The position numbers were made by a program, and so were the translations under genes. The notes below the pieces were generated by a model that was not told where the DNA came from, made no database searches, and worked only from the letters and a program-made list of their open reading frames with translations. A stretch of 64,000 bases of DNA from Dictyostelium discoideum (Eukaryota): contig CM000150.2 in assembly GCA_000004695.1 (NCBI GenBank), positions 1,504,001 to 1,568,000 of the forward strand, in the 5' to 3' direction. Positions 8,409-24,102 of this stretch are shown piece after piece. Numbering within the stretch: the stretch's first letter is position 1; each line of letters starts with the position of its first letter.

Positions 8409-10206
8409 ATGAAATTTTCTTTATCTTTAATTTTTATAATAATTTCTGCAATTGTGAATGTAAACTCTCAAACAACTTGCAGATTTGCACCAACCTATAC
8501 ATTAAACGATATTATTAACTCTAATAATCAATCATTCATCAATGATGTATTATTTTGGGAAGGAAATGTATGTATGGAAATCAAAAAATTAATAAAAAAT
8601 AACAAAAAATATTAATAATTAATTTTTAAAATAAAAAAAAAAAAAAAGTTTCATTCAAATCAAGTTGGAGTAAATTATGAATGTGGATATACATATGATG
8701 GACATGAATTAAATTATATTACTGGAGAATTGGATTCACCATTACATGAATTCAGTGCACCATCAAAAGAATCAATTCATTTAGGAATGTTAGCATTGGC
8801 ATTGAATGAATGGGTTAATGAAGAACCGGAAAATTATAAAGCAATTAATTTTTTTCATCAAAACATAACTCGTACCACCACAGAACAAAACGAGATTCCA
8901 TATAGTGGTAATAGTAATTTTGACAATGCAATTACAATACTCTATAGAAAGATCAATACCTATCATCAATTTAATCAACGTTTTCCAGGATTTGGTGGAT
9001 TTCATCCATGGGTATCGGTTAATGATTCCGGTATTTTCTTATTAGATGGTTGGACCAACCAAGTACCAGGTTTGGATAATGGTGAAATGATTTGGGGACT
9101 TTATGCAGTATACAACCTATTAACCACTCAACCAACATTTATTAACAACTACCCCACACTCGGACCATTGTATGAAAAATATTTCCAAATATTAATTAAT
9201 AATGCAATGACAATATTCTATCAACCAAGTGGCTATATTAGTGCAGTTGTAGAAATCAATGATATCTATTCAACACCAACACCAAGCAATTATTTAAATC
9301 CAAGTGGATTATTAAATGATCCATATGAGGGTGAATTGTTGGTAGTGTTTATGGACTTGTTTTGCCAATGGCCATCTGAAGAGGCACGTGACCAAATTTG
9401 GATTAATAAAAGAGCATTATTACAATCAGTTGAATTCAATACCCATAGCAATACAAATATAACAGTTCAACGTGGTTGGTGGTTTTCATCACATGAACAA
9501 TGGAAATATTTAATGTTACCTTATCAAGAGATTGAAATTAATCAACGTGTTTTCCGTAATGGTGAAAGGGCAAGAACTTGGTTCTCCTCAATTAATAATT
9601 ATCCTGGTTTATTTGCTTCTGTAACAAATGTAACTGAAATCAATCAAAATAATGGCTACGTTAGTGCAACTGGTATTAGTGAAATTGCTTTTCAACAACA
9701 AGTTACCAATGCATTAATAACACCATATGCTTCATTTCCATTATTTTTAATTCATGATCAACCATCATTAGGTCTTTCTTGGTATTATACAATGTTAAAT
9801 GGTCCTTCAATGCAAAATCCATTTGGTAGTACTGAATCTGTTAATATAATTGGTACAGGTAAATAATTAATTAATTTATTACATATTTAAATCAAAAAAA
9901 TTCTTTTTTTTTTTTATTTTACTAATTTTATTTTTATTTTTATTTTTAGAAATTGCATCTGTAATTACTTGGGATTCAAAGATTACAACAGTTTTATCAA
10001 TGTTGGGTGGTATTTCAAATATTAATTTACAATTTTTAAAATCAAATGGATTATTTGAACGTTTTTCAACTGTAATTGATAGAGAATGGTCATTGGCTTT
10101 CCCAAATTTAAATGGTGAAAATTTACCATTTATGTATCCGTCACGAGATGTTACAATTCCAAAAATTTTAAATGATTTTACAAATTGTACATTAAAAAAG
10201 ATTTAA
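8409..10206 (+). CDS. Secreted protein of about 540 aa, unknown function, in 3 exons: 8409-8567, 8649-9858, 9950-10206.
   Basis: Exon 1 encodes a signal peptide (MKFSLSLIFIIISAIVNVNSQ). A GTATGT donor at 8568 and an AG at 8647-8648 keep frame into the 378-aa ORF. A second donor, gtaaat at 9859 (phase 1), with an acceptor tttag at 9945-9949, joins the ORF ending in TLKKI at 10206. I recognise no domain (..GFGGFHPWVSVNDSGIFLLDGWTNQVPGLDNGEMIWGLYAVYNLL..). Confidence 0.55.
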
Positions 10207-10263
10207 ATAAAAATAAGAATAATATTTTTAAACAATTATTTATAATAATAATAATAATATTTA

Positions 10264-11878
10264 TTATGATTCTAATGGTTTAATATCGTTATTAATATTA
10301 ACTTCAATTGAAAAGTCTATAACTAAACTATCATCTTTTAACCAAACTTCTGGTTTTTTTCCAGGTTCTGTTGATTTTATAAAATAATGACAACCAACTG
10401 ATTTTTCTTTATCCATAACTTTTTAAATAATCAAAGAAAAAAAAAAAAAAAAAAAGTTAATATATATTATTAGAAAAAAATAAACAATTATTTCCAATTT
10501 GATTAATTTTAATTAATAACTTACTTGATTTATTTTTAAAAATAAGATTTTTAGATTCATCTTTAAAATTAAGTAAAACAAATTTATAAAATACTTTAAT
10601 TGGATTAATTGAATCAGATTTTAAAAAAAGTGAAGTATATGAACCATCGTCTTTACCTTGTGGATAAATTACCAATTTAAATTTTTTATCATAAATTTTA
10701 AAAGATGGAGAAGTAATTTTTCTATATTTTCTTGATTCGGTTAAATAATTTGAAATTGACCATCTATTTTTATATTTAAGTAAACAACCATTAATAAAAT
10801 ATGAATTAACTTTTGAAACTTTTTCAAATAAATCATCAAATTTAATTCTTTCTTGTTGTTCTTTTTGTTCTTTTTGTTCTTTTTGTTCTTTTTGTTGTGG
10901 TTGTTGATTATCTTTTGGATATAAATCTAATTGAAGATTATTTAATTTTTTATCAATTTTAGATTCAAATTGATAAAATTTATCATAGAGTTGGTCACAT
11001 TTTGATTCAGTTTCAAGTTGTTCAAGTTTATTGATCTTATTTAAAAGATTTTCATATTTGATATTGGTTTCTTTGATTTGTAATGATTGAGATTCAATCA
11101 TTGAACCCATTGCAAGTGTATGATTAATTGAACTAAGATGTTGAGTTAAATTTGATTTTGGGAATCTATTTGATTGTTCACAACCATATATTTTGTATGG
11201 ACAATCGATCATTACCATTTGGCATTGTTTTTCAATGTGTGATTCTAATTGAGATCTCTCCAATTGAACGGTACATCCATTTTCACTGCATTTCACAATA
11301 AACTTTGGACATTCTTTATAATGATTCTCTAATGATCTTGATGTTATACCATCGGTATCACAATATCTACAATATTCTAATCTAAATTCACATTGTTCTT
11401 TTTCATGTTTTTCAACTTGATTTAATCTAATAATTTTATTACATCCAATAAATTTACATTTTATATGTGTAAATTTACATTGTTTTAAATGTTTTTCAAT
11501 TTCACCAATTGTTATAATATCTTTACATCCATTTTCTAAATCTTTGATTTTATTATTATTATTTTTATTTTCATCAATATATTTAAATGAATTTGGACAA
11601 TTAACTTTTATATTTAAAAAATCTTGTTCAATGAATCTATTTCTTGATAGTTCTGAAATTGATTTAACTATACATCTACATATCATACATTCTTTTTTTT
11701 TAAACAATGATTCTGCCCAACATGTTTTGCAAAACCAATGAATTTCTTTACATTGATAAATTTCTTTTTTATATACTGATTCATAACAAATTGAACATGA
11801 ATACTTTTCAATATTTACATCTTCATAAAAAATATCTGTTAAATTATATTGTATAAAATAATGTGTATATTCTGCCAT
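10264..11878 (-). CDS. TRAF-like protein with RING finger, TRAF-type zinc fingers, a coiled coil and a MATH domain. Two exons: 10525-11878 and 10264-10418.
   Basis: N-terminal C3HC4 RING (CSICYESV..CKEIHWFCKTCW..CMICR), then repeated C/H TRAF zinc-finger motifs, a coiled coil (KINKLEQLETESK) and a MATH-like C-terminus. The minus-strand GTAAGT donor at 10524-10519 and the AG at 10420-10419 splice in a final exon, IMDKEKSVGCHYFIKSTEPGKKPEVWLKDDSLVIDFSIEVNINNDIKPLES*, that completes the MATH domain. Confidence 0.75.
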
Positions 11879-12723: not shown

Positions 12724-15586
12724 ATGAATAAAAAGGTATTTTTAAATAACTATTTAAATGAAAGAAAACAATTGAATGGTAATGAAATCAACAATAACAA
12801 CAATAACAACAACAATAACAATTACAACAATAATAACAATAATAATAATCTAAATAAGGATAAGGATAAAGATAAAGATAAAGAAAGAGATAAAGATAGA
12901 GAAAGAATTAAAGAAAGAACTAAAGAAAGAGGTGACAAAGAAAGAGATAGAGATAAAGAAAGAGACAGAGAGAGAAAGAAAGAAAAAGTTGAAAAACCTC
13001 AAGTTGCCGTCTTAAAACAAAGTGCTCAACATGTTAAACAACAAAGATTAAAAGAAAAAGAAAAAGGTAAAGAAAAGGAAAAAGATAAAGAAAAAGATAA
13101 GGAAAAAGATAAAGAAAGAGAAAGAGAAAAAGAAAAAGAAAAAGAAAAGGTAAAAGATAGAGAAAAAGAAAAAGAAAAAGAAAAAGAAAAAGAAAAAGAA
13201 AAGGTAAAAGATAGAGAAAAGGTAAAAGATAGAGAAAAGGAAAAAGAAAAAGAAAAAGAAAGAGACAAGCTCAAACCAAAAGATTCCAAAATTAAAGAAA
13301 GAGATATTGAAAAGGAAAAAGTAAGAGATAGAGAAAAAGAAAGAGAAAAAATTAGAGATAGAGAAAAAGATAAAAATAGTAACAATAATATTATTAAACC
13401 AAAAGAAAAAAAAGATGAAAGTATTGCAAAAACTCAAAAAAATATAACAATTAAAGAAAATGGCAATATAACCAGTAGTAGTAGTATTAGTAATAGTAGT
13501 AGTATTAATAATAATAATAATAATAAAATAATAAATAAGAGTGTTAGTACCAATGGTAATGGTAATAGTAGTAATAGTACAAATAATAATAACAGTAATG
13601 GTAGTAATGGTGTAGATATAAAAAAGAAACCAATTCTTGACTCAAAGAAAAGGGCATTACCATCATCATCATCAAAATCTCAAACTACATCAACTTCAAC
13701 TTCAACCTCAACTTCAAAATTATCAAAACCAATTGTGAAAAAGAAAAAAGATTCAAATTTAAAAAGGATTAAACTTTCAAATGGTGGTGTAGTTACAAAA
13801 TATAAGAGAAAGAAATCAAATAATGATAGTGGTAGCGATGATAGTAGTTATGATAGTAGTGATGATAGTAGCGGTAATGATAGTAGTAGTAGTGGTAGTA
13901 GCAGTAGTAGTGGTAGTGATGACAGCGATAATAGTAGTGATGATGATAGTGATAGCAGTGATGGCGATAGTAGTAGTGATAACGATGATGACAATGACAA
14001 AAATAGTAGTGGAAGTGATGATGACGAAGATGGTGATTCTAGTAGTTTCGATAGTAATTATAGTGGTTCATATGATAGTTTTAGTGACAGTAGCGAATGT
14101 GACGATAGTGATTGTTCATGTGGAAAAAAAAGAAAAAATAAACCCGATAGTAGTAATAGTAAATTAACAAATTTAAAAAAACCAATAACCAATGGTAACA
14201 CCACCGATAATTTAGACAATGGTTTAACAACATCATCAATAGTAGTTGACGATCAACAAAAAATTACAAATGAATATATTGAAAAACATTTAAATTCTGG
14301 TAAAGCGAACCCTGACTATTCTGATATTGCTGTCTTAATTCAAAAATCAAGAAATAAGAAATTTGGTTTCATTTCAAGAAGTAAGTATCATTCAATTTAT
14401 TAATAATATAAAATATATATTAATTAACTTTTTTTTATTATTCAGACTTTTTTATAGAAAGAACAGAGAAAATATTATACGAAATTGATGATATTGATAT
14501 TTGTAATTGTTCAAAAAGTAGTGGATCAGTTTGCGGTGATGATTGTTTAAATAGAGAATCATATGTAGAATGTAATATTGAACATTGTGAATTAGGTAAA
14601 AAATGTACGAATCAAAGATTTCAAAGAAAACAATATTCAAATATTAAACCTGCATTTGTAAGTCATATAATATAATTTTTTTTTTTTTTTTTTTAATAAT
14701 AACATATTAATGTTTATTTTTATTTTTTTATTTTTTTTTTATTTTTTTTTTATTCTAGACAGGTAAAAAAGGATGGGGATTAATTGCAAATGAAGACATT
14801 GAAGAAAAACAATTTATAATGGAATATTGTGGTGAAGTAATTAGTAAACAAACTTGTTTGAGAAGGATGAAAGAGGCAGAGAATGAAAAGTTTTTTTATT
14901 TCCTTACATTAGATTCAAAGGAATGTTTGGATGCAAGTAAGAGGGGTAATTTAGCAAGATTTATGAATCATAGTTGTGATCCAAATTGTGAAACCCAAAA
15001 ATGGACGGTTGGTGGTGAAGTAAAGATTGGAATTTTCGCAATTAAACCAATACCAAAAGGTACTGAATTAACATTTGATTATAATTATGAAAGATTTGGT
15101 GCACAGAAACAAGAATGTTATTGTGGTTCTGTAAATTGTCGTGGTTATTTAGGTCAGAAATCAAAATCATCCACTTCTACAACTCGTCCAAAACAAATCA
15201 CTCGTTGGAAGAATTCAATAGTTTTAAATCATAATCATCATGTTAAATATTTTTTAGGTGAACCAATCATTCCACATTCAAACCCTTCCTCCTCCTCTTC
15301 CTCTAGATCAGTATCAACTCTTTATAATAGTGAATTATCACCAGAGATGGAATTACAATTAATTAATTCAAAAAGAATATTCCTACATAGAAATGTTAGA
15401 AAATTGAAATCTTTTTATTTTAATGTTTTTAATTATTATAGTAGCGGTGGTGGTAGTGGTGGTAATAATAAAAAGTTAATTAATATAACTTCAACTTCAA
15501 CTTCAAATTCATCTTTAAATTCATCTTTAAATTCAAATATAAAATTAAAAAGAAAAAATAAAATTAGTGATATCTTCAATATTTGA
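12724..15586 (+). CDS. SET-domain histone-lysine N-methyltransferase with AWS-SET-postSET architecture (SET2/ASH1/NSD type, H3K36-like). Three exons: 12724-14380, 14446-14657, 14759-15586.
   Basis: Exon 1 is low complexity (KDKE/KEKE, S-rich, D/S-rich). Exon 2 encodes the Cys-rich AWS (CNCSKSSGSVCGDDCLNRESYVECNIEHCELGKKCTNQRF). Exon 3 encodes SET (GWGLIANEDIEEKQFIMEYCGEVI..NLARFMNHSCDPNCETQKW..IGIFAIKPIPKGTELTFDYNYE) and postSET (CYCGSVNCRGYLG). Both introns have GTAAGT donors and AG acceptors that preserve frame. Confidence 0.85.
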
Positions 15587-16066
15587 ATTTAAACAAAACA
15601 AAAAAAATCTGGAAAAAAAAAAAAAAAGATATTTTTAAAATTCAAAATTCAAATTTTTTAAAAAAAAAAAAAAAAAAGCACAACCGAAAAAAAAAAAATT
15701 AACCGGTATTAATTTATTTATTTTTATTTTTTTTTTTTTAATTTTTTTTTATTTTTTTTTTTTTTTTTTTTTTCACAACAAATTTTTTTTTTTTTTTTTT
15801 TTTTTTTTATTATTTTTATATTTTTATTACACATATCGCTTAAGGTAAGTTTTATATGGCAAAAAAGACATATGAAAAATAAAAATGAAAAAAAAAATAA
15901 AATAAAAAATAATATTGTTATTACACCTGCATCGATATTATAAGATATTTTATATTTTTTTATTTTTCTCTCTTTTATTTTGTGTTTATTTTTCAAACAA
16001 ATTTTCTTTTTTTTTTTTTTTTTTGTATAAGTAATAGGAAAAATAAATAAAAATAAAAAAAAAAAA

Positions 16067-16112
<46 letters not shown>

Positions 16113-16753
16113 CAACAAACATTAAACATAAAACAAATAATTTTTTTTTAAAAAAAAAAAAATAATAAAATCATAGTGAGCCTACCCAATAAAAAAAAAA
16201 AAAAGTAATATAAAAACTATAAAAATAAATTGGATACGATTTTTTTTTTTTTTTTTAAAAAAACACCACACATAATAAAATTAATTTATAAAAAGAATAT
16301 AGAATAAGTAATGAAATTTCCTTCTATTCCTTAGAATTTCTTTATTTCAAATAATGATTCTTAATTTTAATCGGAATTTCATTTTTTCTTGGAAATATTT
16401 TTTTAAATTATTAAGTTGTAAAAATTCTTCCAAATTTCCCAAAAACTATTACAATAAAAAAAATATTTAACTGAAATTTTTATTTCTTTTTTTTTTTATA
16501 TTTTTATAAATTTTTAATTATTTTTGTATTTGTTTTTTTTTTTTTTTCAAAAATTTTTTAAAATAAAATAAAATTTTTTTTTTTTTTCATTCATTATTTT
16601 TAATCCCAATTTTTCATTCAACACCCACATTAAAAAAATAAAAATCTTGTTTCACACAAAATTTCAGTATAATTTTAAATAACAAATAATTAACACCACA
16701 CTCTTATAAATTTATAAATTATAACAACAATAATAAATAGTATATTTTAAAAG

Positions 16754-17173
16754 ATGGCCCGTACAAAACAAACCGCACGTAAATCAACTGGTGCTAAAGT
16801 ACCACGTAAACACATTGGTTCTAAACAAGCCCATAAACAAACTCCAGTCTCTTCATCAAGTGGTGGTGTAAAGAAAGTACATCGTTTCAGACCAGGTACT
16901 GTCGCTCTTAGAGAAATCAGAAAATACCAAAAGAGTACCGATCTCTTAATTCGTAAACTCCCATTCCAACGTTTAGTCAGAGAAATCGCACAAGAATTCA
17001 AAACCGATCTTCGTTTCCAATCTGCCGCCATCGGTGCCCTTCAAGAAGCCTCTGAAGCTTACTTGGTTGGTTTATTCGAAGATACCAATTTATGTGCCAT
17101 CCACGCTAAACGTGTTACTATCATGCCAAAAGATATTCACTTAGCCAGACGTATCAGAGGTGAAAGATCATAA
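16754..17173 (+). CDS. Histone H3, the Dictyostelium-type H3 with an extended, divergent N-terminal tail.
   Basis: Translation is [139 protein letters not shown]. The histone fold is essentially canonical H3. The tail keeps K4, K9 and GGVKK (K36) but replaces the canonical AARKS K27 region with [11 protein letters not shown]. Confidence 0.95.
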
Positions 17174-17306
17174 AGAGTTTATTTTTATTTTTTAACAAAA
17201 AAAAAAAAAAAAAAAAAAAACAAAACTATTCAACTCATTTGTAAATTTTCATTAATATAATTCCATAAAAAAAAAAAGAAAAAAAAAAAAGAAAAAAAAA
17301 AAAAAG

Positions 17307-17337
<31 letters not shown>

Positions 17338-17690
17338 TTTTTTTTTAAATAAAGATAATGTTATTTAATTAATTTGTATATACAGCTTTTATTTTATTTT
17401 TTTAATATAAAAACCTTTTTTTTTTAATTTTTTTTTTTTTTATTTATTTTTTTCATTACAATTTCCAAAAATTTTGAAAATTTTTATTTTATTTTTATTT
17501 TTATTTTTTTTTTTTTCATTACAATTTCATATCCGATTATTACTTATTCAAATACAGATAGATAGAAAAAAAAAAAAAAAAAAAAATAAAATTAATATAG
17601 ACATAGTTGTATATATTTTTTTTTTTTTTTTTTTTTTTAAATCATTGCAATGATTAGATCGAAAAGTAATATATAATAATAATAAAAATA

Positions 17691-22501
<4,811 letters not shown>

Positions 22502-23024: not shown

Positions 23025-23435
23025 ATGATTAATAGTTTTGTCTCTACAACTAAAAAAGTTACTACCTCCATCCCAACAAATGATATTTTTCCAATTAGAG
23101 AGGAATATACTGAAGATATTAGGTCAATGCTTCAAAATAATTTAAATCAATTTTTGGAAGTGGTAAAAAAAGAGGTACCAATGTTTTACCTTTATAAAGG
23201 TATTGAAGGTAGAGTTAAGGAAATTGAGTCAATGAATAGAAAATTGGTTACTAAAAATAAACATAGTTGGAAAGATGTTTCTGATTATTGTGGTGTTCAA
23301 ATTATTGTTCATCCTTTTAAAAATATAAAAGAAATCATTCATATGTTAAATCATTTAACAAAAAAACATAATTTCAAAATGTTTGTATTTTATTTAAAAA
23401 TTTATTATTTTATTATCTTATATTTATTTTTTATT

Positions 23436-23479
<44 letters not shown>

Positions 23480-24102
23480 CACAAAGAGTAAAAGAAGAAA
23501 ATATTTTACCAAAAGATTCTACATCATTTGGATATAGGGCAACTCATATTGATTCAATATTTAATGATTTAAAGGTCGAAATTCAAATAAGAACTATTTT
23601 TCAAGATATATGGGGACAATTGAGTCATCAACAATATGAAATTGCAAGATTAAATGGTTATGATAATGCCCATAATTTACCAAGAGATATTAGTCAAATA
23701 TCTTCTCTTTTGGAAATATCTGAAGTTCTTTCAGGTTTATTGGCAAGTAACCACTCTCAACCAATACCAACTTCTAAAGTTGAATCACCAGATCAAATGA
23801 AACTTTTGTTTGCTAAAAAATTTAAGTACGGAGGTCATATGACCAATTGGGAATTTGGAGTTCTTTTTGAAGTTTCAAAACTTGGTGGAATTAATTCACC
23901 ACATGAACTTGAAAAAAAGTGGATTGAATTTTCAAAAAAATTAAATAACCCACCAGAGTCAACGCCAAATGTAATTTTTAAATTTGCTCAATACTTATTT
24001 ATTGGAGAATCCTTTAATCCAAATATTATCACTGATTCAAAAGTATCTTATGAACTCCTTCATAAATTTAAAAATGTTTTGTCGAATATTCCATTAATAT
24101 GA
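23025..24102 (+). CDS. RelA/SpoT-family nucleotidyltransferase (alarmone-synthetase-type) domain protein of about 324 aa, with no HD hydrolase domain. Two exons: 23025-23380, 23487-24102.
   Basis: The spliced product reads ..YKGIEGRVKEIESMNRKLVTK..WKDVSDYCGVQIIVHPF..HNFK-I-VKEENILPKDSTSFGYRATHIDSIFNDLKVEIQIRTIFQDIWGQLSHQQYEIAR. This carries the RelA_SpoT synthetase signatures GRVK..S..K, D-x-x-G-[IV]-[QR]-I-I, PK..GY+S/A.H and E[IV]QIRT..W. The donor is gtttgt at 23381 (phase 2) and the acceptor is AG at 23485-86, removing a T-rich intron. Confidence 0.7.

Follow-up and report, generated by a model that had tools for sequence, protein, structure and literature searches.

The open reading frame at positions 16754..17173 (+) of the 64 kb stretch of DNA analysed here (the window) is the single-copy gene of histone H3a, which in Dictyostelium discoideum is the major nucleosomal H3 and is H3.3-like. 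The explanation that best accounts for the data as a whole, and that we hold to be very probable, combines this identity with a constrained, lineage-specific tail, with a set of inferred consequences for the readers and writers of that tail, and with a SET-to-H3a gene order that has been retained as microsynteny. The H3a gene itself, its three-serine insertion, its dominance among the H3 proteins and its missing S28 have all been published already.

The coding sequence is one unbroken, intronless ORF of 139 aa plus a stop codon, as seen in the ORF listing and its translation, and the product is identical to H33A_DICDI (EAL73153.1) at 139 of 139 residues. The published qPCR primers for H3a each match the window once, at 16799-16818 (+) and 16878-16896 (-), and the paper that supplied them names the gene DDB_G0267402; the primers and the full-length identity therefore place ORF 16754..17173 as the H3a gene of the model organism. 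The protein matches PF00125 (Histone) with an E value of 1.5e-47 over residues 7-135 and is 83% identical to human H3.1 and H3.3, as expected of a core histone H3; the canonical histone fold claimed for it in the earlier note is thus borne out, and the tail reads exactly as that note had given it when translated from the ORF. Besides H3a, tblastn found no second H3 gene and no H4, H2A or H2B gene in the 64 kb window, which has 22.7% G+C and many poly-N and poly-Q ORFs, as is usual for Dictyostelium.

Within the histone fold, translation and alignment place the segment S86-A-A-I-G-A-L-Q93 at 17012..17035 (+). It carries the AAIG of human H3.3, not the SAVM of H3.1, and a serine in the tail aligns with S31 of H3.3, so that the protein is H3.3-like. 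Human H3.3 and H3a have in common the fold, the AAIG chaperone-recognition motif, the serine at the S31-aligned position, tail residues 1-12, lysines K14, K18, K23, K27, K36 and K37, and the lack of a downstream stem-loop element; however, human H3.3 is a replacement variant, whereas H3a is the bulk H3 in Dictyostelium. For the stem-loop, the evidence in H3a is weak: neither the histone 3' stem-loop nor any other Rfam family matched at E<=1 in 15500..18800.

Hsu et al. 2012 (PMC3424546) count three H3 genes in Dictyostelium, each present in a single copy. H3b makes up ~32% of total H3, so that H3a accounts for ~68%, and H3c is barely expressed (PMC3424546). H3a forms the upper gel band owing to its three-serine insertion, within which phosphorylation has been detected; residues 1-19 are identical across the three variants, all of which were described as H3.3-like, and the variants do not fit the scheme of replication-dependent and replication-independent H3s (PMC3424546). 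A deletion of H3a was not obtainable, though the locus can be targeted (PMC3424546; PMC8758696). S10 and S28 are both conserved in H3b, and S10 only in H3a (Brustel et al. 2022, PMC8758696); in H3b, S10/S28 are ADP-ribosylated (PMC8758696), and ~90% of K9 acetylation, together with the detectable R2 asymmetric dimethylation, sits on this variant (PMC3424546, PMC8758696).

The D. discoideum H3b tail is given as ...KHLGNKSSQK27S28FPSTQGLK36KTHRF in Suppl. Table 2 of a preprint (Grau-Bové et al., bioRxiv 10.1101/2021.11.30.470311), and the H3b-type paralogs of other dictyostelids resemble it. H3b (EAL72769) is like H3a in its H3.3-like fold, in tail residues 1-19 and in having no ARKS at K27. Unlike H3a, it keeps the K27-S28 "KS", has lost the GGV before K36 (TQGLKKT), has no serine insertion, is dispensable at its ~32% of H3 (PMC3424546) and adjoins no SET gene. 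The earlier note had proposed an alignment with the other H3s of the organism; among the dictyostelid H3a-type and H3b-type sequences that we aligned, none has ARKS at position 27 (H3b has SSQKS), the H3c protein (EAL72896) lying outside this comparison.

Residues 1-30 of H3a align without gaps with human H3.1 and H3.3. Relative to human H3, the tail keeps A1-G12, K14, P16-K18, K23, A25, K27 and P30, with K4 and R8-K9-S10 among the unchanged sites, and carries the substitutions G13A, A15V, Q19H, L20I, A21G, T22S, A24Q, R26H, S28Q and A29T. Human KAARKSAP has thereby become KQAHKQTP, and AARKS has become QAHKQ. By the gap-free alignment, the former ARKS module of K27 is A25-H26-K27-Q28 (16829..16840, +), and AHKQ is common to all H3a-type orthologs. 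The ARKS around K27 that marks a PRC2/E(z) substrate is absent from Q24-A25-H26-K27-Q28, where the lysine is present and R26 and S28 are gone, replaced by histidine and glutamine. The PAT of canonical H3 then gives way to PVSSSS, with V31 and four serines (S32-S35) at 16847..16861 (+) amounting to a net insertion of three residues. GGVKK follows, in the K36 module G36-G37-V38-K39-K40-V41-H42-R43 (16862..16885, +); because of the three-residue insertion, canonical K36 is K39 in H3a numbering. Canonical P38 is replaced by V and Y41 by F, which changes the K36 site at +2 and +5.

The description of the tail in the earlier note holds for the preservation of K4, K9 and GGVKK in the alignment to human H3, and for the serine-rich insertion, which consists of three extra serines before GGVKK. 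Its statement that the K27 region had been replaced is right as regards the ARKS motif, which is now AHKQ, but lysine 27 itself is retained and it is the neighbours that have changed. The K36 context, which the note had taken as preserved, is kept in part: GGVKK stands, but P38V and Y41F do not fit.

Codon comparisons indicate that this tail is constrained and has been kept rather than decaying. The identical H3a protein is encoded in 8 Dictyostelium contigs, and the seven compared differ synonymously only, by 6 to 15 changes per CDS. Against Polysphondylium violaceum, the H3a CDS has 36 synonymous and 3 nonsynonymous codon changes, and tail codons 19-43 have 6 synonymous and 0 nonsynonymous changes; purifying selection thus acts on the unusual tail. 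Five other dictyostelids have a matching H3a-type tail (D. purpureum, P. violaceum, Cavenderia fasciculata, Acytostelium subglobosum and one EukProt species). Their H3a-type orthologs all end the tail segment in GGVKKVHR(F/Y), and their tails differ solely in the short serine stretch, which reads SS, QSG, SSSS or SSSSS; its length among dictyostelids thus varies from 2 serines (or Q-S in Acytostelium) up to 5. Residues 1-18 of H3a can be described as a canonical tail, and residues 19-41, as judged from these alignments, as a lineage-specific segment under purifying selection in dictyostelids.

The H3 of Pelomyxa schiedti (Archamoebae; P0072) has the same derived H19, I20, S22, A25-H26-K27 and GGVKK as H3a; unlike H3a, it has no serine insertion (at that place it is a residue short of the canonical length) and keeps P38, G13 and A15. 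Since the AHK state is common to Pelomyxa, the R26H change appears to predate Dictyostelia, and the serine insertion and P38V look dictyostelid-specific; few taxa were compared on both points.

The structure of the gene is less uniform among orthologs. The H3a CDS is intronless in the window and in P. violaceum, and is interrupted after approximately codon 120 in D. purpureum (10001..10890 of locus L008) and at approximately codon 100 in A. subglobosum (10001..10550 of locus L010); with the D. discoideum CDS unbroken, any H3a intron must lie outside it. About 5 kb downstream of H3a in the D. purpureum locus, the final 28 codons of H3 recur at 15813..15896 (-) with 71% identity; this second copy may represent a fragment of a gene, a further H3 exon or an artefact of assembly.

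Upstream of H3a lies a gene of the KMT3 (SET2/NSD/ASH1) family at 12724..15586 (+), which we modelled as three exons (12724..14380, 14446..14657 and 14759..15586) encoding 898 aa with an in-frame AWS-SET. The exons are joined in one frame by two short AT-rich introns with GT/AG ends. The ends of this model are approximate: an exact-sequence look-up gave no database match, and a homolog search yielded fragments and orthologs but no annotated AX4 protein. In related assemblies, the genes called at this place range from 842 to 949 aa. The AWS-SET-postSET catalytic core, delimited by SETD2 alignment and tblastn/tblastx, spans 14487..15165 (+) and is broken by the intron at 14658..14758. Pfam identifies AWS (7.4e-13) and SET (1.6e-29) in the protein, and a post-SET CxCxxxxC follows (CYCGSVNC, aligned to SETD2), which is the domain order of KMT3 enzymes. 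The core is ~50% identical to the human SETD2 catalytic domain, contains all of the GWG, NHSC, ELTFDY and CxCxxxxC motifs, and is conserved in the D. purpureum, P. violaceum and A. subglobosum loci (L008, L009 and L010; tblastn/tblastx).

Compared with solved structures, the SET protein matched SETD2 best (7e-64, 219 bits), then NSD2 (3e-61, 211 bits), NSD3 (8e-56, 193 bits), NSD1 (1e-54, 189 bits), ASH1L (7e-54, 187 bits) and Set2 (1e-50, 176 bits). Set1/MLL-type enzymes and EZH2 scored far lower, at 95 and 91 bits at best (~1e-24 to ~1e-26, with 6e-26 as the best value), and among named homologs SETD2, NSD2 and set2 come closest. An H3K36-type (KMT3) SET family member, nearer to KMT3 than to other SET families, is a fair description of the predicted protein. 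The earlier note had placed an H3K36-type SET gene here, and at the family level the domain order and the SETD2 match agree with it.

The upstream gene resembles SETD2, Set2, NSD and ASH1L in its AWS-SET-postSET core and catalytic motifs and differs from them in having no detected SRI, WW, PWWP or PHD domain and a long low-complexity N terminus. At E<=1, Pfam found no family besides AWS and SET in the C-terminal 372 aa and none at all in the N-terminal 559 aa, a search that a divergent SRI could have escaped; with no detectable SRI, the predicted enzyme may not be the transcription-coupled Set2 ortholog, and there may be another KMT3 gene elsewhere in the D. discoideum genome. The N-terminal ~550 aa (12724..14380), in which Pfam found no match, consist of low-complexity sequence with (K/R)(D/E)K repeats (KDKE), poly-Asn and acidic Ser/Asp runs.

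Between the stop codon of the SET gene and the ATG of H3a lies an AT-rich intergenic spacer of 1167 bp (15587..16753), which presumably contains the H3a promoter. The two genes are on the same strand, head to tail and not divergent, so their proximity is not explained by a common promoter. The same tandem in the same orientation is found in seven assemblies of the D. discoideum complex and in D. purpureum, P. violaceum and A. subglobosum, with spacers of 0.5-1.8 kb across these loci (808 bp in P. violaceum and 546 bp in A. subglobosum, whose SET core is 66% identical). In one more dictyostelid, an H3a-type gene and the SET ortholog bear the consecutive numbers gene11341 and gene11342, and the pair is probable there too. 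When positions 3001-32000 of the window were compared by tblastx, SET and H3a were the only genes in common with P. violaceum and A. subglobosum, over ~20 kb for A. subglobosum and a shorter stretch for P. violaceum; D. purpureum shares the SGL_GH162 gene further upstream as well. As the other neighbours differ, the pair has been conserved while its surroundings changed. We did not find this linkage described in the literature examined, and the observation may be new, if modest.

As a control, the H3b-type genes adjoin no SET gene; their neighbours in both C. fasciculata (L011) and Tieghemostelium lacteum (L013), members of two dictyostelid groups, are a Ribosomal_L35Ae gene and a protein kinase gene, at ~3.9-7.6 kb. 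H3b keeps unrelated neighbours, and the retention of neighbours by H3 genes therefore occurs without an obvious functional link. A genome-wide background rate of pair retention was not found in the literature. The SET-to-H3a tandem is most simply regarded as retained microsynteny.

Directly downstream of H3a, a long gene for a Q/N-rich protein (17691..18584 and 18728..22501, +) ends in a C-terminal HP1/CBX-type chromodomain. This domain (~22322..22468) matches Pfam Chromo at 5e-14, has its best solved matches in CBX3 and HP1 at ~3e-12, and carries the aromatic residues F, W and Y at the three cage positions, as read from the sequence. With the SET gene upstream and the chromodomain gene downstream, H3a in D. 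discoideum has a KMT3-type "writer" on one side and a chromodomain "reader" on the other. The H3a-chromodomain adjacency occurs only in the D. discoideum-complex loci (L001-L007) and not in D. purpureum, P. violaceum or A. subglobosum. Further downstream lies a RelA_SpoT gene (PF04607, alarmone-synthetase type) of 323 aa at ~23025..24102 (+), made up of ORFs 23025..23537 and 23620..24102. Every Dictyostelium locus has this gene ~6 kb downstream of H3a (at ~16-17.7 kb in L001-L007), followed by a GST gene. RelA/SpoT-type genes are unusual among eukaryotes other than plants.

The status of K27 methylation in this organism is mixed. According to one statement in the preprint already cited, D. discoideum is among the organisms that "lack EZH1/2 orthologs" (Grau-Bové et al., bioRxiv 10.1101/2021.11.30.470311), and our literature search found no second source for the absence of PRC2. 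The same preprint reports the detection of H3K27me3 by mass spectrometry in D. discoideum (bioRxiv 10.1101/2021.11.30.470311), and "no K27 methylation" is therefore not established. The earlier note had assumed a lineage without PRC2-type K27 methylation; the reported absence of EZH1/2 agrees with that assumption, and the mass spectrometry does not. The combination of EZH absence and H3K27me3 detection is, on the evidence of those statements in the preprint, already published.

KAARK(mod)SAPAT, the canonical context, is what commercial antibodies to H3K27me3 and H3K27ac are made to recognize. This epitope is on neither H3a (AHKQ) nor H3b (SQKS), and K9 is the sole ARKS site on H3a; cross-reaction is therefore a real concern, and it is plausible that commercial anti-K27 antibodies recognize K9 marks in Dictyostelium. 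Such antibodies, together with anti-H3K36me3, were used for Dictyostelium ChIP-seq by Wang et al. 2021 (PMC8094536), in whose supplements there are no site-level mass-spectrometry rows for K27 or K36. The anti-H3K27me3 ChIP was uninformative, a result for which low specificity of the antibody or a similar localisation is mentioned in the paper (PMC8094536). An H3K36me3 ChIP signal was reported in the same study, with an antibody raised against the canonical epitope (PMC8094536). The published Dictyostelium K27 ChIP-seq should accordingly be read with caution. We did not find the epitope argument in the literature examined, and its novelty is modest.

Several other readings of these data have to be weighed against the one proposed here. 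It could be supposed that this ORF represents a divergent, minor or pseudogenised H3 and that a canonical H3 elsewhere forms bulk chromatin, a prospect that the earlier note had itself raised. We consider this exceedingly improbable: H3a is the upper, more abundant H3 band and apparently essential (PMC3424546, PMC8758696), the barely expressed H3c has the same residues 1-19 as the other two variants (PMC3424546), H3b has SSQKS and not ARKS in the preprint's table, and H3a is under strong purifying selection. A divergent, minor or pseudogenised copy is thus ruled out by the published protein quantification and the synonymous excess. A stronger reading of the tail would be that PRC2 was lost and the K27 region then decayed, leaving no K27 methylation and a functionally empty stretch. 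The preprint's statement that EZH1/2 orthologs are missing, the lack of ARKS at K27 in the dictyostelid H3s compared and the uninformative anti-H3K27me3 ChIP (PMC8094536) all speak for such a decay, but all H3a-type sequences have K27, and across dictyostelids the region has stayed the same while synonymous sites turned over, which amounts to constraint. Moreover, H3K27me3 was seen by mass spectrometry according to the same preprint, and the AHK state shared with Pelomyxa suggests that the change is older than Dictyostelia; decay is therefore unlikely, and we retain the reading of a constrained tail.

The gene order invites the further idea that selection keeps SET and H3a adjacent as a writer and its substrate, either because they have their regulation or their chromatin domain in common or because the enzyme is coadapted to the K36 context of H3a, with K36 methylation being largely H3a-specific. 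This would fit with the same order and orientation, at spacers of 0.5-1.8 kb, from the D. discoideum complex through D. purpureum and P. violaceum to A. subglobosum, with the consecutive gene11341 and gene11342, with the finding that SET and H3a are the sole genes that the window has in common with P. violaceum and with A. subglobosum in the compared stretches, and with the H3b-type paralogs, which have lost GGV (Q/A/S-G-L-K-K-T) and have no SET neighbour. However, the head-to-tail arrangement provides no common promoter, and H3b has kept its Ribosomal_L35Ae and protein kinase neighbours from C. fasciculata to T. lacteum. We regard a selected writer-substrate pair as improbable and favour neutral microsynteny over selected linkage. 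A joint version, in which the pair is selected, K36 methylation is specific to H3a as the sole GGVKK variant and K27 in AHKQ is methylated by a non-PRC2 enzyme, is distinctly doubtful.

Under our preferred reading, that of a constrained tail beside a neutrally retained SET gene, several functional consequences can be envisioned. On H3a, the readers and writers of ARKS would be confined to K9/S10, including HP1- and Polycomb-type chromodomains, E(z)-type enzymes, S28 kinases and KS-directed serine ADP-ribosylation, and H3b, which keeps K27-S28, would take the S28 functions. K27 of H3a would be open to acetylation, or to methylation by a non-PRC2 enzyme, and any K27 methylation would have to come from an enzyme other than E(z). 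K39 (canonical K36) lies in what would be a KMT3-recognized context and is probably methylated by a SET2-family enzyme, for which the neighbouring SET gene would be the obvious first candidate; H3b, with GLKK, may be a poorer KMT3 substrate than H3a. H3a and H3b would in this way partition the tail functions between them. Methylation of H3a K36 by the neighbouring SET enzyme is putative, as is any function of the adjacency.

In conclusion, the conserved SET-to-H3a linkage points to a concrete candidate K36 methyltransferase, and the single-copy, replaceable H3 genes make Dictyostelium suited to asking what K27 does, and which enzymes modify it, without PRC2. If the joint version were true, the histone code would be rewired and divided between variants in a lineage that has no Polycomb.
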